Positions 3,343 to 58,182 of a DNA stretch of 64,000 nucleotides are shown piece by piece. The notes under the pieces were generated by a model. That model was not told the origin of the DNA and did not search any database. It saw only the letters and a program-made list of their open reading frames with translations. The position numbers and the translations under genes were made by a program. How positions within the stretch are numbered: position 1 is the stretch's first letter; every line of letters begins with the position of its first letter. The DNA comes from Candidatus Uhrbacteria bacterium (lineage in GTDB: Bacteria > Patescibacteriota > Patescibacteriia > JACQRZ01). The DNA lies in contig JACQSC010000002.1 of NCBI GenBank assembly GCA_016206155.1, positions 79,473 to 143,472 on the forward strand. Reading direction: 5' to 3'.

Positions 3343-3608
3343 CCCCTTATAAGGTAAAGGGCGCAAGAACAGCAGCCCCCGTCGCTTCTGTTTGGCTGAC
3401 TAAAAAAAGCTTTGCAGTATGTATGCTTTTCTCTTACTTTGAATGACCCGGCCCGTGGCGGCTACGGGCGCACCCACTCAGTTGAGTCAAGCATACACGA
3501 TCTGTCCCGTTTCCGCCATGGGTACGCCCGTTGCAAAAGAGCAATGGATTAGAGTCGTCGCTCTCACCACAATTCAAAGCAACGGCTAAGTCGACTTAGC
3601 CGATGGCG
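3343..3608. repeat. left arm of a ~265-bp imperfect inverted repeat (partner 4759..5025)
   Basis: Reverse-complementing 4759..5025 by eye reproduces this segment with only a few mismatches, for example ccgccatggg versus ccgccgtggg. Confidence 0.85.
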
Positions 3609-3855
3609 GGGGCACGATGACGACGGTCCTTGCTTTTGCTTCATTTTCCTGTAGTATAGAAGTATCAATGACTATTGTAGAGTGGTCGTTGGGTTTGGTA
3701 TATCTCCGCCTTGGCTACATTGCCTTCTCTCTCGTTGTTGCAGCTTTGAAATTTTATCCACCAAATATGCTGGACAGCAATCATATCGTGTGCTATAGTA
3801 TCAATACTAACACCACCCACTCTGTGCCTTTGGTACACGGTGGGTTTTGTCTATT

Positions 3856-4449
3856 ATGAGCGAGAAAGAACGCGTAGCGGTTTTCATTGATGGGAGCAAT
3901 CTCTATTATAGGATGAAAGAACTTGGAATACTCAGTATATCAAAGTTCGATTATAGGGCGTTGGCTGAATTTCTCGCATTGGATCGAGACTTGGTATATG
4001 CTGGCTATTATGTCGGCGTCGTGAAAGCGAAACCAGACAATACAAAGGGTCAGGAATTGCGAACAAAACAGCAGAAGCTATTTTCCCATTTAACGTCTCC
4101 TCAACAGAATTTTGACATCAATCGAGGCGTGCTCATCAGAAGTGATAGTAAGTACCACGAAAAGGGCGTTGATGTGCGAATCGCGGTTGATCTTCTCGTA
4201 GGCGCTTTTGACAATATGTACGATACGGCAATTCTCCTTTCATCAGATTCTGACCTCGTTCCAGCCGTACAGAAGGTTACCCAGTTCAAGAAAAAGATTG
4301 AGTATGTCGGATTCTCTCATCGACCGACATATGCGCTCCAAAAAGTTGCAACACGTTCAAAATTGCTTCTCAGGGAAGAGCTCATTGCGTTTCAAGTCAA
4401 GTTACAGAACGATGAGCTAGAAAAACAAAATTTTGAGATCTATCTATGA
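3856..4449 (+). CDS. NYN-domain (LabA/PIN-like) protein, predicted RNase
   Basis: The N-terminus VAVFIDGSNLYY and the later acidic cluster AILLSSDSDLV match the NYN/LabA-like fold. ATG at 3856; a TTG at 3847 is also possible. The stop overlaps the next start (ATGA). Confidence 0.7.
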   Translation: MSEKERVAVFIDGSNLYYRMKELGILSISKFDYRALAEFLALDRDLVYAGYYVGVVKAKPDNTKGQELRTKQQKLFSHLTSPQQNFDINRGVLIRSDSKYHEKGVDVRIAVDLLVGAFDNMYDTAILLSSDSDLVPAVQKVTQFKKKIEYVGFSHRPTYALQKVATRSKLLLREELIAFQVKLQNDELEKQNFEIYL

Positions 4450-5812: not shown

Positions 5813-6379
5813 ATGAGCGACGAACAGACACAATCCACAGACGATAACGAAACACTGAAGCATGAGCTTGAAACATGCAAGAAGCAGTGTGAGGAATATC
5901 TCAACGGTTGGAAACGTGCAAAGGCCGACTACATTAACTATAAAAATGAAACTGAGAAGCGACGCGATGAGCTTGCGGGCATGGCTCTTATGACCTCAGC
6001 CGCGCAGTTTATCCCACCGCTCGATAATTTAAAAATAGCATTTATCCAGCTGCCGGATGAACTGAAGGAATCTGATTGGGTGAGGGGCATAGAGCAGATT
6101 CGCAAGCAGCTTGTTGAAATCATGAAAGGTTTGGGGGTTGAGGAGTTTGCAGAACCGGTTGTCGGCGCCGCATTTGATCCGGCAAAATTTTACGCCGTTG
6201 GCGAAGAGCGCCGCGATGATTTTGAGGACGGTGTGATTACACAGGAAGTAAGCCCGGGGTACACATTTCGTGGAAGCCTCATGGTTCCAGCGAAGGTTAT
6301 CGTTAATAAGAATCAAGAATCTAGAATTAAGAATCAAGAATCAGAGGGTGACACAGAGAAGAATGACCTTAATTCTTAA
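5813..6379 (+). CDS. grpE: nucleotide exchange factor GrpE
   Basis: Coiled-coil N-terminus followed by a GrpE C-terminal beta domain (…GYTFRGSLMVPAKVIV). Position between hrcA and dnaK. The C-terminal tail NKNQESRIKNQESEG is encoded by AATCAAG-like heptamers. Confidence 0.9.
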   Translation: MSDEQTQSTDDNETLKHELETCKKQCEEYLNGWKRAKADYINYKNETEKRRDELAGMALMTSAAQFIPPLDNLKIAFIQLPDELKESDWVRGIEQIRKQLVEIMKGLGVEEFAEPVVGAAFDPAKFYAVGEERRDDFEDGVITQEVSPGYTFRGSLMVPAKVIVNKNQESRIKNQESEGDTEKNDLNS

Positions 6380-6437
6380 TTCATTATTCATAATTCTTTA
6401 AATTTAAGAAGCGCTAACATATTAATCAAAATATACT

Positions 6438-10524: not shown

Positions 10525-13047
10525 ATGGAGGACATCACTCAATCATTTTCAGATTTGCTTGCAGAGAATCCTTTTTTTGGTTTGTTCCTTGTTCTGATTA
10601 TCATTGGTGCGCTTGGATGGGTCGGTATCCTCGCGCTTCGCTATGCGCTCCACAAGTGGTTTGAAATACCACTCTCTTTAAACAAGAAGGTTTTGCAGAT
10701 TCTCGTTCCGAAAGAGTCTGCAAAGAAGGAGGAAGAAGATAAGTCATCAAAAAAAGATTACAAAGAGCTGATAGCCGTCATGGAGAGCTTTTATTCGGGA
10801 CTGGGACACCTCAAGCCAAAGTTACGATTTTTTGCTTTTTTTATCGGCCGCGAGGATCATATTTCCCTTGAGATTGCCGCGATTGAAGGATTGGTAAAAT
10901 TTTTTATCGTTGTTCCCGCGCACATGCAGCAGTTTTTTGAGCAGCAGCTGCACGCCCAATATCCATCGGCGAAGGTGGAAGAGGTTGAGGATTATAATCT
11001 GTTTCGTCCGCGCGGAGTTATCATCGGCGCGCCGATTGTCGCAACCAAGGCGTCCATGTTTCGTATCCGCACGTACAAGACCATGGACTCCGATCCGCTC
11101 AACGCTCTGACCAACGCCATGAGCAAGGTGGAATCAACGCAGGGCGCGGCGATTCAGCTCGTGATCCGCACCGCGCGAAGAGGATGGGGGCGGCGCGGCG
11201 TTGAGATCGCGCGCAAAGTCCAAAAGGGAAAATCATTAAAAGCGGCCATGCAGGGACCGCTCGCTGGTTTCGTTGACGGGCTGGCGCACACATTGATCAA
11301 AGGTACGTCTGATGCGGTTTTCTCACCTGACAAAAAGTCGCCGCCCATGAAAGGAACGGAGGATCCCTATCCGCGACACTCACCGATGGAGCAGGAGCTT
11401 ATCAAATCGATCGAGGAAAAAGCATCAAAGGGCGGCTTTGAGACGAGTATGCGCGTAGTGACATCGGCAGATGATGAGCGCGTTGCCAAGATGCATTTGC
11501 ATAGTATTGCCAATGCGTTTTCCCAATATCTCGCGCCCGAGTCCGGTATTACACTGCGAAAGAAAAAGTATTTTTATTTCAAAGGATCGTTGATAAAAAG
11601 TTTTATCTATCGCAGGTTTGATCATCGGCGGAAATTTATTTTTTCAACCGAGGAACTTGCCAGCCTGTATCACTTTCCGTTGAGCACAACCGAAACGCCA
11701 AATATACAATGGCTGCACGCGCGCACAGCGCCTCCCCCCGTTGATATCCCACAAGAGGGAATTATTCTTGGTGAAAGCATCTATCGGGGCAAGCGCACCC
11801 TTATTCGCATGAAGCGGGAGGATCGCCGCCGTCACATGTACGTGGTCGGTACGACAGGTGTTGGCAAGACGACGATCATGGAAAACATGATTATTCAGGA
11901 TATTCAGAACGGCGAGGGGTGCGGATTCATCGATCCTCACGGCGAGGCCGTCAAACATATCTTGGAGAATATTCCACCGGAACGCGCCGACGATGTCGTG
12001 TTGTTTGATCCATCGGATACCGATCGGCCAGTTGGCCTCAATATGCTTCAGGCCGACACGCCAGCTGAGACTGATTTTGCCATTCAGGAGATGATTGCGA
12101 TTTTCTATAAATTGGTGACAGATCCCTCCATGATCGGGCCGATGTTTGAGCACTACATGAGGAACGCCATGCTGACCCTTATGTCCGATCCAGTCCATCC
12201 GGGAACAATCGTCGAGATTCCTCGCATTCTTACCGATCGCGACTACCAGACCTACAAATTGCAAACGGTGACCGATCCTATTGTGCGGGCGTTTTGGGAA
12301 AAGGAGCTTCCTCAGACCGCCGGACAGACAAAAGGGGAGATGTTGCCTTACCTTGTATCAAAAATTGGACGGTTTATCGAGAACGTCATGATGCGCAATA
12401 TTATTGGGCAGGAGCATTCCGGTTTTGATTTCCGCGAGGTGATGGATCGTAAAAAAATTCTTCTGGTCAATCTCTCAAAGGGACAAGTCGGAGAGATAAA
12501 CAGCAATCTCTTGGGGCTCGTGGTGGTCTCCAAGCTGCAGATGGCGGCGCTTGCGCGCGCCGATATGCCCTCAGAAAAGCGTCACGATTTTTTTCTCTAC
12601 ATTGATGAGTTTCAAAATTTTATCACCGATAGCATTGCAACGATTCTTTCAGAAGCCCGAAAATATCGGCTTAATCTTGTGCTCGGCCACCAGTATATTG
12701 GACAATTGGTGCCCAAACAGGGTGACACCAAGGTTCGCGATGCCGTGTTTGGCAACGTTGGGACCATTTGCGCATATCGTGTCGGTGTCGATGACGCGGA
12801 ATTGATGGCAAAACAGCTTGCGCCGGTGTTCAATGAGTATGACGTCATCAATACGGAGAAGTACACCGCCAACCTTCGCCTTCTTATCGACAATACAGCG
12901 GCGCGCCCTTTTAGTATGCGTACTTTTCCTCCATTGGAGGGAGATGTGAATATTGCCGAGGCAATTCGGCAGCTTGCGCGCCTTAAATACGGACGCGACC
13001 GCGCGTTGGTTGAGGCCGAGATCCTCGAGCGCTCTCAGCTTGGGTAG
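10525..13047 (+). CDS. TraD/TrwB/VirD4-family coupling-protein-like ATPase with a long N-terminal transmembrane extension
   Basis: N-terminal TM (FFGLFLVLIIIGALGWVGILAL). Walker A motif GTTGVGKTT and Walker B motif FFLYIDEFQNF, followed by HQYIGQL. The architecture matches T4SS coupling-protein and TraG-D_C ATPases. Confidence 0.75.
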   Translation: MEDITQSFSDLLAENPFFGLFLVLIIIGALGWVGILALRYALHKWFEIPLSLNKKVLQILVPKESAKKEEEDKSSKKDYKELIAVMESFYSGLGHLKPKLRFFAFFIGREDHISLEIAAIEGLVKFFIVVPAHMQQFFEQQLHAQYPSAKVEEVEDYNLFRPRGVIIGAPIVATKASMFRIRTYKTMDSDPLNALTNAMSKVESTQGAAIQLVIRTARRGWGRRGVEIARKVQKGKSLKAAMQGPLAGFVDGLAHTLIKGTSDAVFSPDKKSPPMKGTEDPYPRHSPMEQELIKSIEEKASKGGFETSMRVVTSADDERVAKMHLHSIANAFSQYLAPESGITLRKKKYFYFKGSLIKSFIYRRFDHRRKFIFSTEELASLYHFPLSTTETPNIQWLHARTAPPPVDIPQEGIILGESIYRGKRTLIRMKREDRRRHMYVVGTTGVGKTTIMENMIIQDIQNGEGCGFIDPHGEAVKHILENIPPERADDVVLFDPSDTDRPVGLNMLQADTPAETDFAIQEMIAIFYKLVTDPSMIGPMFEHYMRNAMLTLMSDPVHPGTIVEIPRILTDRDYQTYKLQTVTDPIVRAFWEKELPQTAGQTKGEMLPYLVSKIGRFIENVMMRNIIGQEHSGFDFREVMDRKKILLVNLSKGQVGEINSNLLGLVVVSKLQMAALARADMPSEKRHDFFLYIDEFQNFITDSIATILSEARKYRLNLVLGHQYIGQLVPKQGDTKVRDAVFGNVGTICAYRVGVDDAELMAKQLAPVFNEYDVINTEKYTANLRLLIDNTAARPFSMRTFPPLEGDVNIAEAIRQLARLKYGRDRALVEAEILERSQLG

Positions 13048-13050
13048 CGA

Positions 13051-13099
13051 GGGGTCTGGCTCAGTTTTTGCACCGGCAAAATCTGTGCCTGACCCCATT
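13051..13099. repeat. palindromic element copy, intergenic (family with termini GGGGTC(A/T)GG)
   Basis: ggggtctggctcagtttttgc…gcaaaatctgtgcctgacccc forms an imperfect hairpin. Its reverse complement is near-identical to the element inside thrC at 24291..24355. Confidence 0.8.
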
Positions 13100-14991: not shown

Positions 14992-15007
14992 AATTTGATA
15001 TTATAGA

Positions 15008-15078
15008 TGCGGGATGGTGCAACGGCAGCACGCTTGGCTCTGAACCAAGTAATCGTGGTTCGAATCCACGTCCCGCAG
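15008..15078 (+). tRNA. tRNA-Gln (anticodon CTG), CCA not encoded
   Basis: Manual cloverleaf fold: acceptor TGCGGGA/TCCCGCA, D-stem GTGC/GCAC, anticodon stem CTTGG/CCAAG with loop CTCTGAA, T-arm CGTGG-TTCGAAT-CCACG. The U1-A72 pair is typical of tRNA-Gln. Confidence 0.85.
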
Positions 15079-15916
15079 GAAATTACTACAAAATGCATTT
15101 TCGCTCCCTTCAGGAGTATTTGAGTTTGAAATTAAATCCCGCCCAGAATCCAATTTTGAATTGAATTCATAAACAAAATTCCAAGGGGCATTGAAATCCA
15201 CCGCCACTTTCCGCTCCGCGAGGAGGCGGTTCGAGCCGTGTTTTTTAAGAAAATCTTTTTTTGCGAAAAGATTTTCTTCCAAAGCGACATTTTCCGCTTG
15301 GTGAGCAGCTAAAATGAACTTTCTTGAAAGTTCGAGCCACGCGTTGCCCTTTCGCTCAAAATCTTTCAATTTCTGCTCAAGATCCATTTTTTGAGAAAGC
15401 ACTTTGTTCTTCTTTGCCGTGTATTCTTCACGGGAGATAGCTTGCTCCAAATGGGCATCGAGCAGAGTGTCCAGCTTGTCGTCATACACCTTAATCTCAT
15501 TCTTGGTTTTTTGAGCGAATAGGGCATCAGATTGGGCGGTGTCCGATTGATCTTTTTCTAGTTGTTCGAGCATCTCGTCCGTCCAATCTTTTGGCAGAGA
15601 AACTTTTTTGATCATCTCGTTTATCTGTTCGGTGAGAAGCTCTTCGCGAATATATCGTTGAGAACATTTTGTGCCATCCTTTTTCTTCGTGCATCGGTAA
15701 TATGCGTGTCCTTTCTTAGACTCGGCAGTAATTGAACAGCCACACTCTCCGCACGAAAAAAGTCCACGAAGGGGAAAAAGCTTCTCGCCCCGTTTCTTTG
15801 GGCAGGCCTTGCTTGTAAGCACTGTCTGCACACTATCAAAAAGTTTCTTTGACACGCATGGCTCATGAGTTCCAGAAAAAAGCTCGCCGTTGGAAAGGAA
15901 GGCACCGTAAGTCAAA

Positions 15917-15963
15917 ATAATGGGGTCAGGAGCCATTAAATTAATGGCTCCTGACCCCATTAT
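15917..15963. repeat. perfect palindrome AATGGGGTCAGGAGCCATTAA-a-TTAATGGCTCCTGACCCCATT, followed by (CATTATTTC)x3
   Basis: The arms were verified by reverse complement. It shares the AATGGGGTCAGG terminus with the copies at 13051, 24291 and 56081. It sits at the truncated 5' end of the recombinase remnant. Confidence 0.85.
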
Positions 15964-16101
15964 TTCCATTATTTCCCATTATTTCATGACCACATTATCC
16001 TATGGACCAGTGCAAGATATAGACATACTCATTTTGACGCTGTATGATGGTTTTAATGTCATACCCGTCCGCAATTTAACGCATACGAACACGAATGCAT
16101 T

Positions 16102-22540: not shown

Positions 22541-22622
22541 GAAGAATTACGAATTACGAATTAAGCATAAAAAGCAACAGATTTAAGCTCCTTAATTCTT
22601 AATTCTTGATTCGTAATTCTTC
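22541..22622. repeat. imperfect inverted repeat built from GAATTAC/GAATTAA heptamers (hairpin between asd and thrB)
   Basis: gaagaattacgaattacgaattaag …35 nt… cttaattcttaattcttgattcgtaattcttc. The arms are reverse-complementary apart from one heptamer variant. Confidence 0.75.
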
Positions 22623-22646: not shown

Positions 22647-23582
22647 ATGCATAAAATAAAAGTGTTTGCCCCGGCAACCGTTGCCAATGTAGGTCCCGGA
22701 TTTGATGTCTTTGGTTTTGCCGTTGAGCAGCCCGGAGATGAGGTTGTTGCGACATTATCAGATACGCGCGGCGTTCGTGTCATTGAGATTACAGGTGACA
22801 ATGGCCTGTTGTCAAAAGATGCGGATAAGAATACCGCTGCCGTTGCAGCGAAAGGACTCCTCGAGCATCTTGGAAGCAATCAAGGCATTGAATTGTCGGT
22901 TCACAAAAAAATGCCGCTTGGAAGCGGTCTGGGATCGAGCGCGGCAAGCGCGGTTGCAGGAGTTGTTGCGGCAAATGAATTGCTTGGCGCGCCATTGTCT
23001 CGGCGGGAGCTTTTACCTTTTACGATGGAAGGCGAGCGTGTCGCGTGCGGCGCCGCGCATGCGGATAATGTTGCGCCGTCACTTCTCGGCGGATTTATTT
23101 TGATTCGCAGTTATGACCCACTTGATGTTATCCGGATTCCCACACCGGAGAATCTTTGGTGCACCGTTGTTCATCCGCACATAGAGGTTCGCACTGAGGA
23201 TGCGCGGCGCATTATGCCAAAGGAAATTTCGATACCAACGGGCATAGCGCAATGGGGCAATACGGCAGGACTTATCGCAGGGCTGTTTGCAAACGATCTC
23301 GAATTGATTGGCCGTTCGTTGGTTGATCATGTCGCCGAGCCGGCACGCTCACAGCTGATTCCCGGGTTTACTGAAGTGAAAAAAACAGCGTTGCGGTTAG
23401 GCGCGCTTGGTTCAAGCATATCGGGGAGCGGTCCGTCAGTTTTTGCGTTGAGTGATTCGCAAGAAAAAGCGAAGCGCATAGGGCAAGCGATGCATGATGC
23501 ATGGACAGATCGCTATTCACTTGACAGCGACGTGTTTGTATCGCAAATCAATAAGGAAGGCCCGCGTATTATTTCACAATGA
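22647..23582 (+). CDS. thrB: homoserine kinase
   Basis: GHMP-kinase motif PLGSGLGSSAASAVAGVVAANELLG. N-terminus VFAPATVANVGPGFD. Confidence 0.9.
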   Translation: MHKIKVFAPATVANVGPGFDVFGFAVEQPGDEVVATLSDTRGVRVIEITGDNGLLSKDADKNTAAVAAKGLLEHLGSNQGIELSVHKKMPLGSGLGSSAASAVAGVVAANELLGAPLSRRELLPFTMEGERVACGAAHADNVAPSLLGGFILIRSYDPLDVIRIPTPENLWCTVVHPHIEVRTEDARRIMPKEISIPTGIAQWGNTAGLIAGLFANDLELIGRSLVDHVAEPARSQLIPGFTEVKKTALRLGALGSSISGSGPSVFALSDSQEKAKRIGQAMHDAWTDRYSLDSDVFVSQINKEGPRIISQ

Positions 23583-24928
23583 ACTATTACAGCACAAACA
23601 AAAAAGCGCCGAGCGTGTCATTGCGCGAGGCGGTATTGAACGGTCTTGCGCAGGACGGGGGATTGTATATGCCTGAGCGGATTTCACAGATGCCGTCAGA
23701 TTTTTTTGTTCGTCTTCCCTCGCTATCATTTCAAGAAATTGCATACGAGGTTGGCCGTGTGCTTTTTGCCGGAGATCTTCCCGACAGTACTCTGGATGAG
23801 ATATGCAGAGAAAGTTTTGATTTTCCTGTTCCGTTAAAGCGTGTCGATGCATCGACACACGCTCTTGAGCTATTCCATGGGCCGACACTGGCATTCAAGG
23901 ATTTTGCCGCACGATTTATGGCTCGGCTCATGGGCTATTACGTGCGTCATGATGATCGGGAGCTGACTATCCTTGTCGCAACATCCGGAGATACGGGAAG
24001 CGCGGCTGCGCACGGTTTTCTTAATGTTCCTGGCATTCGCGTCTTTATTCTCTATCCATCCGGCCGGGTCAGCGATCTTCAGGAGAAGCAGCTGACGACA
24101 ATGGGCGGGAACATCACCGCGCTTGAAGTTCAGGGGAGTTTTGATGATTGTCAGGCGCTGGCAAAGCAGGCATTTGTTGATCCGGATTTAAAAAAGAAAA
24201 TGCGCATGGGATCGGCAAATTCAATTAACATCGCGCGGCTTTTTCCGCAGACGTTTTATTACTGGTGGGCAGTTGAACAAATGGGGAAACGGGGTCAGGC
24301 ACAGATTTTGCATTCGCAAAAACTGAGCCAGACCCCAACTGAGCCAGACCCCATTATCGTCTCTGTCCCGAGTGGCAACGTTGGCAATCTCACGGCCGGG
24401 CTTATTGCAAAACAAATGGGTCTGCCAATTGGCCGCTTTATTGCCGCATGCAATGAAAATAACGTTATTCCGGAGTACCTTAAAACAGGGATCTTCACGC
24501 CGAAGCCTTCTCGTGCTACGATATCCAATGCCATGGATGTAGGCAATCCAAGCAATTTTGTGCGGATGCAGGAGCTCTATGGTCACTCTGCAGATGCGAT
24601 GAGGCATGATCTCTCGGCCCATTCCTTCACCGACGATCAGACACGAGCGGCGATGCGGGATGTGTATAACGATACGGGATATATTCTTGACCCTCATGGC
24701 GCCGTTGGATATTGCGCGCTCAAGGAATATCAGAAACAATATCCGGAAACGTATGGCATTATTCTTGAGACCGCTCATCCGGCAAAATTCAAAGACGTTG
24801 TAGAGGACACTATCGGCTCGCCGGTTGACATACCAAAGCGTCTGGCAGAATATATGATGCGAGAGAAGCAAGCAGTTTTACTACCCGCGCGATTTGGGGC
24901 ATTAAAAGAATTTTTGATTAGCTCATGA
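23579..24928 (+). CDS. thrC: threonine synthase (carries an in-frame palindromic-element insertion)
   Basis: PLP-binding FHGPTLAFKD lysine motif and SGNVGNLTAG. Overlaps the thrB stop. Positions 24291-24355 encode an extra peptide (…GQAQILHSQKLSQTPTEPDP…) from a repeat element. Confidence 0.92.
   Translation: MNYYSTNKKAPSVSLREAVLNGLAQDGGLYMPERISQMPSDFFVRLPSLSFQEIAYEVGRVLFAGDLPDSTLDEICRESFDFPVPLKRVDASTHALELFHGPTLAFKDFAARFMARLMGYYVRHDDRELTILVATSGDTGSAAAHGFLNVPGIRVFILYPSGRVSDLQEKQLTTMGGNITALEVQGSFDDCQALAKQAFVDPDLKKKMRMGSANSINIARLFPQTFYYWWAVEQMGKRGQAQILHSQKLSQTPTEPDPIIVSVPSGNVGNLTAGLIAKQMGLPIGRFIAACNENNVIPEYLKTGIFTPKPSRATISNAMDVGNPSNFVRMQELYGHSADAMRHDLSAHSFTDDQTRAAMRDVYNDTGYILDPHGAVGYCALKEYQKQYPETYGIILETAHPAKFKDVVEDTIGSPVDIPKRLAEYMMREKQAVLLPARFGALKEFLISS
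24291..24355. repeat. palindromic element copy inserted in-frame inside thrC
   Basis: ggggtcaggcacagattttgc-attc-gcaaaaactgagccagacccc forms a 21-bp stem with three A-A mismatches. The right arm is partially duplicated (aactgagccagacccc x2). Near-identical to the reverse complement of 13051..13099. Confidence 0.85.
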
Positions 24929-55509: not shown

Positions 55510-56718
55510 TTACGAGGCGGACGTGCGTCGCTGAGTCATGATAAAAACTATAAAGCACAGCGTTGCCAAAGCGGCTAGTACAGCGCCAAATAGAAAAGGA
55601 GCAGAAGGACTCACTCGATCCCACAGCAGACCAGCAATAAAACTCGCTGGCAGGCTCACAAGTCCAATAGCGGTGTTATAGATGCCATATGCCCGACCGC
55701 GATGAGTGGCAGGGACCATATCGGCGACAAACGCCTTGGCAACACCATAAGTTGTTGCATAGTAGAGTCCGTAGAACGCAAAGAGGAGCCATATCTGATA
55801 GCTTGCGTTCGCAAGTCCAAATCCGAGATACGCAATGGCATACGCACACCACCCAAGCAGAATGACTTTTTCGCGTCCAATCCTGTCAGATAGACTGCCA
55901 AGGGGAACCGACGCGCTTGCATAGACCGCATTAAACAGCGCAAACACAAGCGGAATGGCAAGAATGGTGACGCCAACATCCTGCGCGCGAAGAATGAGAA
56001 ACGCGTCGGATGAATTACCGATGCCAAAAAGCAGCACGATTGCGAGGAAGATATAAAATTTTTTTGGGATGGCGCGAGCTGTGAAAATGGTGTCAGGAAT
56101 AGTTTTTGCAGAAACTATTCCTGACACCATTTTCACGGATGTTTCTTTCACCTTTGTTTGGAGGAGGGTCAGCGTAATAAGAAGCGGGAATGCGCAGGCG
56201 ACGAGAATGATCTGATACTGGAGCGGATGGTCTTTCAAAATGTACAGAAGCAAAAAAAGGACGAGCGGCCCCGCTACTGATCCGAATGTATCCAGCATGC
56301 GCGCAATGCCAAAACTTTTCCCCCGCGTAGAAGCGTCAGACGAATCGGCAATCAGCGCATCTTTTGGCGAATCCTTCAATCCCTTACCGATACCGTCGAG
56401 GAAGCGTAAAAAAAGAATACCCCCCGCACTTGAGATAACGGCCAGAAGTGGTCGCGCTATCATCGAAAGAAAGTAGCCAAGGAAAATAAAAGGTTTTTTC
56501 TTTCCGAACTTATCAACCCAGAATCCCGATACGATTTTAAAAAGGCTGGCTCCACTGGTAACAAGTCCCTCCGAAATGCCAATGAATGCTTTATCAAGTC
56601 CTATGACATTGGCAAGATACAGTGGAAGTATAGGAGCAAAAATATCCTGGCTGATTCCGCCAAAGAAGCTCAACAGGCCTATGAAGAAAACATTTTTCGT
56701 TGGTTTTTTCACTTTCAT
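55510..56718 (-). CDS. MFS transporter (carries an in-frame palindromic-element insertion in the central loop)
   Basis: 12-TM topology and an MFS motif region (…FGKKKPFIFLGYFLS…). The central cytoplasmic loop is encoded by the 56081..56136 palindrome. Confidence 0.85.
   Translation of the reverse strand: MKVKKPTKNVFFIGLLSFFGGISQDIFAPILPLYLANVIGLDKAFIGISEGLVTSGASLFKIVSGFWVDKFGKKKPFIFLGYFLSMIARPLLAVISSAGGILFLRFLDGIGKGLKDSPKDALIADSSDASTRGKSFGIARMLDTFGSVAGPLVLFLLLYILKDHPLQYQIILVACAFPLLITLTLLQTKVKETSVKMVSGIVSAKTIPDTIFTARAIPKKFYIFLAIVLLFGIGNSSDAFLILRAQDVGVTILAIPLVFALFNAVYASASVPLGSLSDRIGREKVILLGWCAYAIAYLGFGLANASYQIWLLFAFYGLYYATTYGVAKAFVADMVPATHRGRAYGIYNTAIGLVSLPASFIAGLLWDRVSPSAPFLFGAVLAALATLCFIVFIMTQRRTSAS
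56081..56136. repeat. perfect 25-bp-arm palindrome (GTGAAAATGGTGTCAGGAATAGTTT-ttgcag-AAACTATTCCTGACACCATTTTCAC) inside the MFS gene
   Basis: The arms are exact reverse complements. The terminus AATGGTGTCAGG resembles the AATGGGGTCAGG family. The host reading frame is preserved. Confidence 0.85.
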
Positions 56719-57263
56719 TGGGTGAGTATTTTTTTTACCGCTGCGATTCTTTCATCGATGGTGCCGCTAATTTCTCTGAAGGGGAGATTGAGTGCGGTAA
56801 GAACCGTCAGGAGATGGGCGTGAACCTGAATGCGCATAGCAGCGGATTCTGTTCGAACGGCATCCGTATCATCAAATTGATAATCAATATCATCGGGATT
56901 GAGAAGGAGAAAAAGTGTCACATCTCTCAGATGCTCGATTGAGCCATCGGTCAGCCGACGGACAGCTTCTGTATCCTGCCCCAACATAGCGTACACGATA
57001 CAGCTTATGAGCGAGCTGTCACTAATGACGGTCCGCGCACCGCTTGATACGGCATCAGCAAGATCCGCAATAAAATGACGCTGGAGCGTTGATTGGTTTT
57101 CAAATGATGAACGCTGCTCCAAGGGGATGTCGTATGTTTGATAGTATGTGCGCGCTGATTCAGCAACAAAGGAGCAGTCCGGTACTGCCTCCGCGCGAAT
57201 ACTATCAAAAAGTGTTGTCTTCCCTGATGCGCTCGTTCCAACGAGCGAATAAATAAGCGGCAT
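56715..57263 (-). CDS. P-loop NTPase, AAA_28/NadR-kinase-like
   Basis: MPLIYSLVGTSASGKTTLF Walker A at the N-terminus. ESARTYY, VISDSSLISCIVYA and LLLNPDDIDYQFDD follow the AAA_28 pattern. The longer ORF in the track runs over tRNA-Gly and is not used. Confidence 0.6.
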   Translation of the reverse strand: MPLIYSLVGTSASGKTTLFDSIRAEAVPDCSFVAESARTYYQTYDIPLEQRSSFENQSTLQRHFIADLADAVSSGARTVISDSSLISCIVYAMLGQDTEAVRRLTDGSIEHLRDVTLFLLLNPDDIDYQFDDTDAVRTESAAMRIQVHAHLLTVLTALNLPFREISGTIDERIAAVKKILTQ

Positions 57264-57266
57264 AGG

Positions 57267-57291
57267 TGATTGGAGCGGGATACGGGAATCG
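57267..57291. repeat. 25-nt direct repeat of the tRNA-Gly 3' end (att-like), partner at 57383..57407
   Basis: tgattggagcgggatacgggaatcg occurs twice, 116 bp apart. The second copy is the real 3' end of tRNA-Gly. Confidence 0.8.
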
Positions 57292-57386
57292 CCGCTCGCT
57301 CCGACTCGCGGTCCGGGGTTGCTGCGCGCACTCGCAACCCGTTCGATTCCCGCGCGACAGCTGCCAGCTGTCGCTTTCATTATGAT

Positions 57387-57460
57387 TGGAGCGGGATACG
57401 GGAATCGAACCCGTGCTGCTTGCTTGGGAAGCAAACGTACTGCCATTATACGAATCCCGC
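57387..57460 (-). tRNA. tRNA-Gly (anticodon CCC), CCA encoded
   Basis: Reverse complement: GCGGGAT-TC-GTAT-AATGGCA-GTAC-G-TTTGC-TTCCCAA-GCAAG-CAGC-ACGGG-TTCGATT-CCCGT-ATCCCGC-T-CCA. Confidence 0.85.
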
Positions 57461-57483
57461 AAAAAGTGTGATATACTGTTGCA

Positions 57484-58182
57484 ATGTTCATAGATTACTC
57501 TATGCGAACAATCTTTGCAATAATGCTGGTGGCGGGTGTCTTGGCGAGCATTGGATCGCCCAACGTCGCGCATGCATTCGTGGGTATTCATGAAGATCCA
57601 ACTGCGTGCGAGAATGGGATTTCTCTGGCGGGATCTAAAAAGGGGCTGATCACCGATACCATTCCGTGGAACATTGTACAGGAATTTACCCCGATCCCTG
57701 AGAATCTCAAAGCATTGTCGTCGATCTGCGCCTTTGCGCTGACCACGAACTCGGTGATTAATTTTTCCTACGAGCATGAACCGACACTGTATCGTCCTCG
57801 CGTATACAATTGGGTTGCGGGAACGCGCCAGTGGCGTCCTGTCGAGACAACGATGGACAGGACAACAAGTACTGTCTCGGCAACACTCGACAGCCAGCGA
57901 GGCGTGATCGGCGTTTTTATTGATCAACGCGATGCATATGAGGGAATCGCAAGTTGGTACCGCCACAAGCGGTATCCTACCGGCGCCGCCACGAACATCT
58001 ATCCGATTGGGACAAAATTACGCGTCACAAATCTCGATACAAACGCGTCGACAACGGTGACAATAACATCCACATGGACGAATAAAAAGAATGAACGTAT
58101 AATTGATCTTGTCAGCGCCGCGTTTGAAAAAATCGGCAATCTGCGTGCCGGCCTTATCCCCGTGCGAATCGAAAGAATATAA
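57484..58182 (+). CDS. secreted RlpA-like double-psi beta-barrel protein
   Basis: Signal peptide, then the C-terminal DPBB domain GIASWYRHKRYPTGAATNIYPIGTKLRVTNLDTNASTTVTI…RIIDLVSAAFEKIG. Confidence 0.7.
   Translation: MFIDYSMRTIFAIMLVAGVLASIGSPNVAHAFVGIHEDPTACENGISLAGSKKGLITDTIPWNIVQEFTPIPENLKALSSICAFALTTNSVINFSYEHEPTLYRPRVYNWVAGTRQWRPVETTMDRTTSTVSATLDSQRGVIGVFIDQRDAYEGIASWYRHKRYPTGAATNIYPIGTKLRVTNLDTNASTTVTITSTWTNKKNERIIDLVSAAFEKIGNLRAGLIPVRIERI

Follow-up and report, generated by a model that had tools for sequence, protein, structure and literature searches.

How does a perfect palindrome come to lie, in frame, inside an intact transporter gene? The question is raised by a 64,000-nt stretch of a Candidatus Uhrbacteria bacterium genome (assembly GCA_016206155.1, contig JACQSC010000002.1, positions 79,473 to 143,472 of the forward strand), hereafter the window, in which a 56-bp palindrome, here called element C, is embedded in a gene for a transporter of the major facilitator superfamily (MFS). 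Our results suggest that C is probably a miniature, non-autonomous, REP-like palindromic repeat of the TIRtron type, inserted in frame and mobilised in trans by a Y1 enzyme. A TIRtron in this sense is a gene for a Y1/HUH IS200-like tyrosine transposase flanked by such repeats.

The palindrome and its host gene

The features on which the analysis of C rests are as follows.

55510 to 56718, minus strand: host gene, MFS transporter; 402-aa open reading frame (ORF), Pfam MFS_1 (5e-45), intact, with six plus six helices
56081 to 56136, no strand assigned: element C, a 56-bp perfect palindrome with 25-nt arms and a 6-nt spacer; its minus-strand reading gives MFS residues 195-213
56081 to 56105, plus strand: left arm of C, GTGAAAATGGTGTCAGGAATAGTTT, with the terminal module AATGGTGTCAGG at 56086-56097; also seen in the Logan contig L145
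56106 to 56111, plus strand: spacer of C (hairpin loop), TTGCAG, asymmetric
56112 to 56136, plus strand: right arm of C, AAACTATTCCTGACACCATTTTCAC, which includes CCTGACACCATT at 56120-56131

The initial annotation had described a perfect palindrome with 25-bp arms around a ttgcag spacer within a minus-strand MFS gene, and both parts of this description were borne out. The arms were complementary at all 25 positions, and when C was taken as a spacerless repeat with 28-nt arms the complementarity was 96%. C was the top-ranked inverted repeat of the window, being both the longest and the best, and RNA folding of the region gave -44.7 kcal/mol (z = -10.8), a stability that none of 200 shuffled sequences attained. 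With slashes marking its ends, the flanks of C read gagcT/GTGAAA...TTTCAC/Ggatg. The Logan assembly of SRR12113425 (locus L145) matched the window through the 3' part of the MFS gene, the left arm and the spacer, and ended at 56110. Since L145 reproduces the left junction of C, that junction is not peculiar to one assembly. The end of this short-read contig (L145 position 3470, equal to window position 56110) falls exactly at the centre of the perfect palindrome; a contig break at a perfect inverted repeat is plausible in a k-mer assembler. Such palindromes appear to fragment k-mer assemblies, and they may be under-represented inside genes of public contig sets.

The host ORF was 100% identical to the NCBI protein P0001 (MFS transporter, Candidatus Uhrbacteria bacterium), which is 400 aa long and starts at GTG 56712, two codons downstream of the ORF start. 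Within it C encodes VKMVSGIVSAKTIPDTIFT. An AlphaFold model of the protein, built with 22 orthologues (mean pLDDT 83.7, pTM 0.82), comprised six helices, a coil at residues 189-218 and then six more helices, and residues 196-213 were the sole internal stretch with pLDDT below 50. This low-confidence coil between helices 6 and 7 supports the earlier placement of C in the loop between transmembrane helices 6 and 7 (TM6-TM7). The same description had called the loop segment hydrophilic, which was not the case: the peptide encoded by C was mildly hydrophobic, with a mean Kyte-Doolittle value of about +0.8 (hand calculation). Upstream of the MFS gene, the longest ORF of an AAA_28 gene (56715-57491) overlaps a tRNA-Gly on the same strand (57387-57460); its real start is probably near 57263, a more downstream position that agrees with the 188-aa orthologue in locus L002.

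Comparison with orthologous proteins showed that C is an insertion. The loop was parsed between the conserved KV.E. and LP.KFY anchors and could be delimited in 93 of the 120 best homologues. It measured 14 aa in 76 of these 93 orthologues and 13-17 aa in nearly all, vs 23 aa in the window protein; only two others were longer than 17 aa (19 and 25 aa). The other 92 contained neither the family peptide motif nor a partial palindrome, and the closest orthologues, P0002 (88% identity) and P0003 (80%), had unrelated 14-aa loops without any palindrome. Conservation of the loop among distant orthologues had been named beforehand as a result that would weaken the interpretation of C as a mobile element; instead, the orthologous loops proved unrelated in sequence and mostly of another length, and the interpretation survived. 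At the DNA level, the loop spanned 69 nt in the window vs 42 nt in the orthologous loci L001 and L002. The net gain was thus 27 nt for a palindrome of 56 nt, implying that most of the ancestral loop was overwritten or deleted. Matches to GGKGTCWGG in L001 and L002 were considered as family copies and rejected as chance matches, being without a palindrome.

The preserved frame requires no special insertion mechanism. Only one of the three frames through C is open on each strand, and the MFS gene uses the open one; frame preservation is therefore what selection leaves. The arms provided a further indication of the history of C. Third-codon identity between the MFS gene and its L001 counterpart was 0.48, yet the arms of C pair at every position; with synonymous sites near saturation, C must either be young or have been kept symmetric.

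Relatives of C in the window and in other genomes

Three further elements of the window, A, B and D, were related to C.

13051 to 13099, minus strand: element A, intergenic; it starts 4 nt past the stop of the ORF 10525-13047, and 43 nt separate it from the next start codon
15915 to 15965, no strand assigned: element D, whose 25-nt arms pair perfectly around a 1-nt spacer and each carry the exact 12-mer; it is located at the 5' edge of a recombinase-like ORF that is truncated
24280 to 24355, plus strand: element B, an in-frame insertion in the threonine synthase gene (23579-24928), with AAAC added and its right terminus duplicated in tandem (16 nt)
24321 to 24336 and 24337 to 24352, plus strand: duplicated right terminus of B, 16-nt tandem copies

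Scanning the window for the terminal 12-mer AATGGKGTCAGG with at most one mismatch returned seven matches, vs 0.34 expected (20-fold), and none of 100 shuffles reached seven. Apart from C, the matches lay at 13088, 15919/15950 and 24288/24344. A looser search for paired modules recovered the four elements A to D and nothing else in the window. A palindrome without relatives had been named beforehand as the other result that would weaken the mobile-element interpretation, and this outcome too favoured the element: the palindrome is not an isolated oddity but one of four dispersed copies in 64 kb. The 21-nt arms of A, in its minus-strand reading, were identical to those of B, including three A/T differences between the two arms, and only the 4-nt loops differed. 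C matched the A/B arm at 22 of 26 positions; over its interior 12 nt it matched both A/B arms at nine positions, one more than the best (eight) among 242 arms taken from other genomes. This interior match beyond any foreign arm indicates that C is specifically related to the local family, as the initial annotation had proposed. Its statement that the terminus of C is one base off the termini of the elements at 13051, 15917 and 24291 was confirmed as to the matches, with the qualification that A carries the exact 12-mer on one side only and that the element at 24291 (B) has one mismatch on each side. That element is also a true in-frame insertion, so C is indeed a second case in a coding region of the window.

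The threonine synthase (ThrC) copy was informative about what is conserved in these elements. The window ThrC has 16 extra residues at B relative to E. coli ThrC (1vb3), and among 120 ThrC homologues the element was present in two, the window protein, which also occurs in a Logan assembly, and P0122 from a second Uhrbacteria species, at the same site and with 74% identity over the whole protein. In the DNA of P0122 (locus L144) the element reads AAAATGGGGTCAGGCACAGATTTGCTTCGCAAAACTGAGCCAGACCCTATT, translated as KMGSGTDLLRKTEPDPI. B has in addition the extra AAAC and the 16-nt tandem duplication, and over most of its length its reading frame is not that of the P0122 copy. With three single-base indels left aside, 42 of 43 positions were identical between the copies, vs a third-codon identity of 0.51 in the flanking 228 codons. 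Such DNA identity despite different reading frames shows that the conservation is at the nucleotide level, and selection on the peptide cannot account for it; a constrained element, transfer of sequence from other copies (by renewed copying or gene conversion) or a second insertion at a hot spot would each fit.

Some further features were observed around these copies. The minus-strand ORF beside D (15001-15984) resembles the C-terminal part of a large serine recombinase, contains a zinc-ribbon-like CGECGC...YYRC motif and overlaps a tRNA-Gln on the opposite strand (15008-15078); a tRNA-site integrase that has decayed is a possible identity. The right terminus of D, CCATTATTT, occurs in three tandem copies (15957-15984), that of B, AACTGAGCCAGACCCC, is tandemly duplicated (24321-24352), and the right terminal inverted repeat (TIR) region of a Luteimonas TIRtron described below (L044 4095-4180) has several repeated termini. 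Terminal duplications thus recur in the family and may represent slippage or abortive processing at element ends. Two other repeats of the window, at 6308-6398 and 22541-22622, are inverted arrays of units of about 7 nt (GAATTAC / AAGAATC type) with 31-nt imperfect arms and are unrelated to C.

The distribution of the family was much wider than the window. When the pattern AATGGKGTCAGG N10-40 CCTGACMCCATT was scanned in a collection of species-representative genomes, at least 118 loci in about 12 phyla were found, several genomes having many loci, vs a random expectation of about 0.5 (rough estimate). The matches listed included beta- and gammaproteobacteria (Massilia, Pseudoduganella, Paucibacter, Luteimonas, Thiosymbion and others), Myxococcales, Coriobacteriia/Collinsella, Ilumatobacter, Bacillus/Neobacillus, Lachnospiraceae, Oscillospiraceae, Prevotella, Bacteroidales, Planctomycetota, Opitutae, Parachlamydiaceae, Elusimicrobia, Nitrospirae, Aminicenantes, Fimbriimonadaceae and one Candidatus Nomurabacteria genome. 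The interior sequence of the elements was specific to a genome or clade and kept its self-complementarity. On the inner side of the 12-mer, the next five positions are variable yet paired in about 90% or more of the elements; pairing fell to background by four positions outward, which identifies the 12-mer as a near-terminal module. Of 14 cases with T instead of G (K/M) at the sixth position of the 12-mer, 13 showed the matching choice on the opposite arm. In two Massilia species, family palindromes (L003 7233-7293 and L107 7298-7357) lie in loci that share several homologous ORFs and are probably syntenic; they have the same outer arms (AATGGGGTCAGGGTTAA.TA) and entirely different centres, each of them palindromic. 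It seems that the centre of the element turns over while symmetry stays.

Most family copies were intergenic, and in the Nomurabacteria genome the copy directly follows a stop codon, like element A. In-frame intragenic copies were found in a CobT-type phosphoribosyltransferase gene of two Prevotellaceae, where the Pfam domain spans the insertion, in a PGI-like gene of a Coriobacteriia metagenome-assembled genome (MAG) and in an AAT-family gene of a Planctomycetota MAG. Two apparent intragenic cases from high-GC genomes (L053 and L070) were rejected, because the long ORF runs through two genes there and the palindrome falls between them. The family pattern had no match in viral contigs, and a plasmid BLAST search with a representative element had none either.

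A metagenome scan for the 20-nt arm of C returned 20 contigs, none with a palindrome, where about two chance matches were expected (own estimate). These matches were treated as coincidence and not as relatives: 19 of the 20 represent an unrelated conserved element in which the 20-mer opens a small ORF. This element of about 100 nt (L121-L137, L139 and L140; for example, L129 12230-12335) consists of a Shine-Dalgarno sequence and then a small ORF, MVSGIVFLISCCCFRGARR followed by a stop; the first 20 nt of the ORF equal the arm of C, and GGGGGGCGAGACGTTAAAAAACTTCCAGGCTCGTTTTCCTGGAACT comes next. It had no Rfam match and no Y1 gene nearby, and its match to C is probably coincidental. Some other similarities were also dropped: a sigma-54 -24/-12 spacing in the A/B arms fails in the wider family, and likenesses to Tn3 inverted repeats and SRP RNA extend to a subfamily only or need gaps.

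The transposase link and the origin of C

A candidate mobiliser was located by seeking widely spaced inverted arms in the fetched family loci. In a Luteimonas MAG (L044), the ORF 3413-4099 lies between AAATGGTGTCAGGGACAATTT (from 3330) and its reverse complement (from about 4099). It contains HUH (NHAHLLL) and Y...NP motifs and matched Pfam Y1_Tnp (3.5e-13) as well as NCBIfam REP_Tyr_transpos (8e-17, below the curated cutoff of that model). The two dispersed palindromes of L044 consist of the two arms flanking this gene, joined around a short spacer. A tblastn search of the fetched DNA with the Luteimonas protein revealed a second case in an Opitutae MAG (L073), where the start of a Y1_Tnp ORF (E = 5e-14 to the Luteimonas protein; Pfam 7.9e-7) is 80 nt from a family palindrome. 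Thus, the family is physically associated with Y1 transposase genes in two other phyla. This association at two of the 118 loci, all from other genomes, compares with a chance expectation of about 0.05 (rough estimate), and in L044 it takes the form of inverted flanking arms. All-against-all ORF clustering of the 118 loci yielded five clusters that were checked, the three largest included, and all were generic (ABC ATPases, response regulators, kinases, RND pumps and LLM oxidoreductases); a single-copy transposase is not expected to surface by this approach. No DDE transposase recurred near the 118 loci.

These observations suggest how C may have arisen. Structurally, C would be two TIRs of a TIRtron joined head to head around a short spacer, the arms carrying a module of the GGGGWSAS type (AATGGKGTCAGG). 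The Y1 enzyme would recognise a single-stranded hairpin and move it without target duplication, by analogy with the established work on IS200/IS605 TnpA and on TnpA_REP of E. coli. A copy would then have entered the DNA for the unstructured central cytoplasmic loop of the MFS protein, displacing or overwriting most of the ancestral 14-codon loop. Its persistence would be due to a loop that tolerates insertion and to the use of the only stop-free frame (MVSG...PDTI), in which case frame preservation would be a survivorship filter and not a property of the element. The insertion was presumably neutral for the transporter.

Several points weigh against this mobile-element origin. TIRYTs, the enzymes of TIRtrons, are not known from experiment to move such repeats, and tblastn detected no homologue of the Y1 transposase within the 64-kb window. 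The exact arm of C was not found as a palindrome elsewhere, C being single-copy in all data searched. Its length of 56 nt is not a multiple of three and the net gain is 27 nt, which requires either that sequence was deleted afterwards or that the old loop was overwritten; no sufficiently close empty site fixed its boundaries, the loop being too diverged among orthologues, and no target duplication was visible. C also has GGTG in place of GGGG (GGTGTCAG, one base off the TIRtron consensus); this T variant is, however, common elsewhere, being present in both arms of 13 out of 121 elements of other genomes, and the TIRs of the Luteimonas Y1 gene have it too. Finally, Quentin et al. (2018, PMC6006769) found no REP-like hairpins next to the genes of subclass 2.1, to which most TIRYTs belong.

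Three other explanations were weighed. The hairpin could have been kept, or exapted, for a host function, such as a translational pause between the six-helix halves of the protein, mRNA stability, or a protein-binding or cruciform site in DNA. The very stable fold (-44.7 kcal/mol, z = -10.8), the perfection of the arms despite saturated synonymous divergence, the covariation of arms across genomes and the near identity of the two ThrC copies (42/43, in different frames, with third-codon identity of 0.51 around them) would all agree with such a role. However, 92 of the 93 MFS orthologues do without the hairpin, the family occurs in unrelated contexts (after stop codons and in ThrC, CobT and PGI-like genes), and recent copying or gene conversion explains the conservation equally well, as the identical arms of A and B illustrate. 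The stem is not followed by a U-tract and is no terminator, and it matched no Rfam family. We therefore regard a host function as unlikely.

A decidedly unlikely origin, in our assessment, is one in place, by template switching that perfected a quasi-palindrome, the likeness to the other elements being coincidental. The MFS loop is hypervariable, the left end of C (GTGAAAA) resembles GCTGAAAAAAC in the orthologous loop of L001, C is perfectly symmetric vs the three conserved arm differences of A and B, and it is single-copy, all of which would suit this view; but the 12-mer together with a 9/12 interior match to the A/B arms would hardly occur by chance (about 4e-4 for the interior alone, own estimate), and the other 92 delimited loops contain no partial palindrome or family peptide motif. 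That the palindrome is a fold-back chimera of a metagenome-assembled genome appears very improbable. Perfect palindromes are hard for assemblers, the exact MFS protein was not found as a product in other assemblies, and the Logan contig ends at the palindrome centre; yet this independent contig agrees with the window at every base of the flank, left arm and spacer up to 56110, the gene reads on in frame through conserved sequence on both sides of C, the arms bear a family-specific module, and a Logan-derived protein (P0121) contains the sister element of ThrC. Insertion of a TIRtron-type repeat thus remains the explanation that we favor.

If C is such an insertion, a bacterium of the candidate phyla radiation (CPR), with a small and tightly packed genome, shows a behaviour of the Rickettsia type, with selfish palindromes within working proteins; two of the four window copies are translated. 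C and its relatives would also be tied to a poorly studied branch of Y1 transposases, that of the TIRYTs. For practical purposes, the 12-mer is a simple search handle that recovers related hairpins over many phyla, the family explains, in annotation, unusual insertions in loops as well as spurious small ORFs of the type MGSG.../...PDPI, and its behaviour is a warning that short-read assemblers break contigs exactly at such palindromes. The most interesting loose ends are the 12-nt module common to several phyla and the conservation of a translated copy at the nucleotide level. A broader proposal, which we advance tentatively as a real possibility, is that miniature TIRtron hairpins form one pan-bacterial superfamily defined by AATGGKGTCAGG, spread over at least about 12 phyla, CPR/Patescibacteria included, and kept at the nucleotide level even inside essential genes. 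If so, earlier surveys saw this module only as an 8-nt motif beside transposase genes, either a still-active domesticated Y1 system in minimal CPR genomes or a hairpin function at the host level would be implied, and there would be a recurrent route from selfish hairpins to protein sequence.

Comparison with known systems

An intrinsic terminator was rejected as an identity for C: the terminator scan made no call there, UUUU lies inside the stem, and AGCUCGC comes after it. Rfam searches at gathering and permissive thresholds assigned no family and returned spurious miRNA-hairpin matches far below gathering scores. [quoted passage not shown]

Bacterial MITEs, such as Correia/NEMIS, RUP and Nezha, resemble C in being non-autonomous and made of the two ends of a transposase-bearing element. 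They are usually longer (70-300 bp vs 56 bp), C has no flanking direct repeat or target-site duplication, and its likely mobiliser is a Y1 single-strand transposase and not a DDE enzyme.

Rickettsia palindromic elements (RPEs) provide the closest precedent for translation, being palindromes that lie in frame in still-functional genes and encode peptides in tolerant regions (PMC3733652). Neither end of C, A, B or D has CGTC or GACG, and no sequence relationship to RPEs was seen. C thus behaves like RPEs in being translated, without belonging to their family. RPEs are also longer than C, at about 100-150 bp, and we know of no dedicated transposase for them.

The REP/REPIN system of E. coli and Pseudomonas, which depends on REP-associated tyrosine transposases (RAYTs), is similar in several respects: REPs are short dispersed palindromes, mostly situated just 3' of genes and occasionally inside them (PMC3733652), and their hairpin is recognised by a single-copy Y1/HUH transposase. 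Unlike REPs, C has no GTAG/GTGG tag 0-2 nt 5' of the hairpin foot; a GTAG was present near A only, 3 nt away and overlapping the stop codon. The arms of the family described here are longer and richer in A+T, and its terminal module is common to several phyla, in contrast with the species-specific sequences of REPs.

The best match was with TIRtrons, which are RAYT-like genes flanked by TIRs, their enzymes being the TIRYTs (Di Nocera et al., 2013, PMC3733652). Many TIRtron repeats share GGGGWSAS, some are self-complementary, some form moderately abundant families, and the occurrence of REPs inside genes is documented (PMC3733652). In a later survey, 20 of 26 TIRYTs fell in Y1 subclass 2.1, present in 14.9% of strains, the consensus was restated as GGGG[AT][CG]A[CG], and branch 2.1.2 was found to be patchy across phyla, with members that have a DnaA_C-like or helix-turn-helix (HTH) C-terminal extension (Quentin et al., 2018, PMC6006769). 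The family core GGGGTCAG fits GGGGWSAS exactly, and A, B and D carry GGGGTCAG or GGGGTCTG. The same arms flank the Luteimonas Y1 gene, the Opitutae Y1 gene lies near a family palindrome, and the distribution over phyla is likewise patchy. The differences are that the conserved block is 12-14 nt long here vs the published 8-mer, and that C resides in a CPR host with no TIRYT gene within 64 kb and is intragenic and translated. Therefore, the phenomenon is of a known kind, and the family to which C belongs is known in outline as the TIRYT/TIRtron repeats with GGGGWSAS that extend over many phyla.

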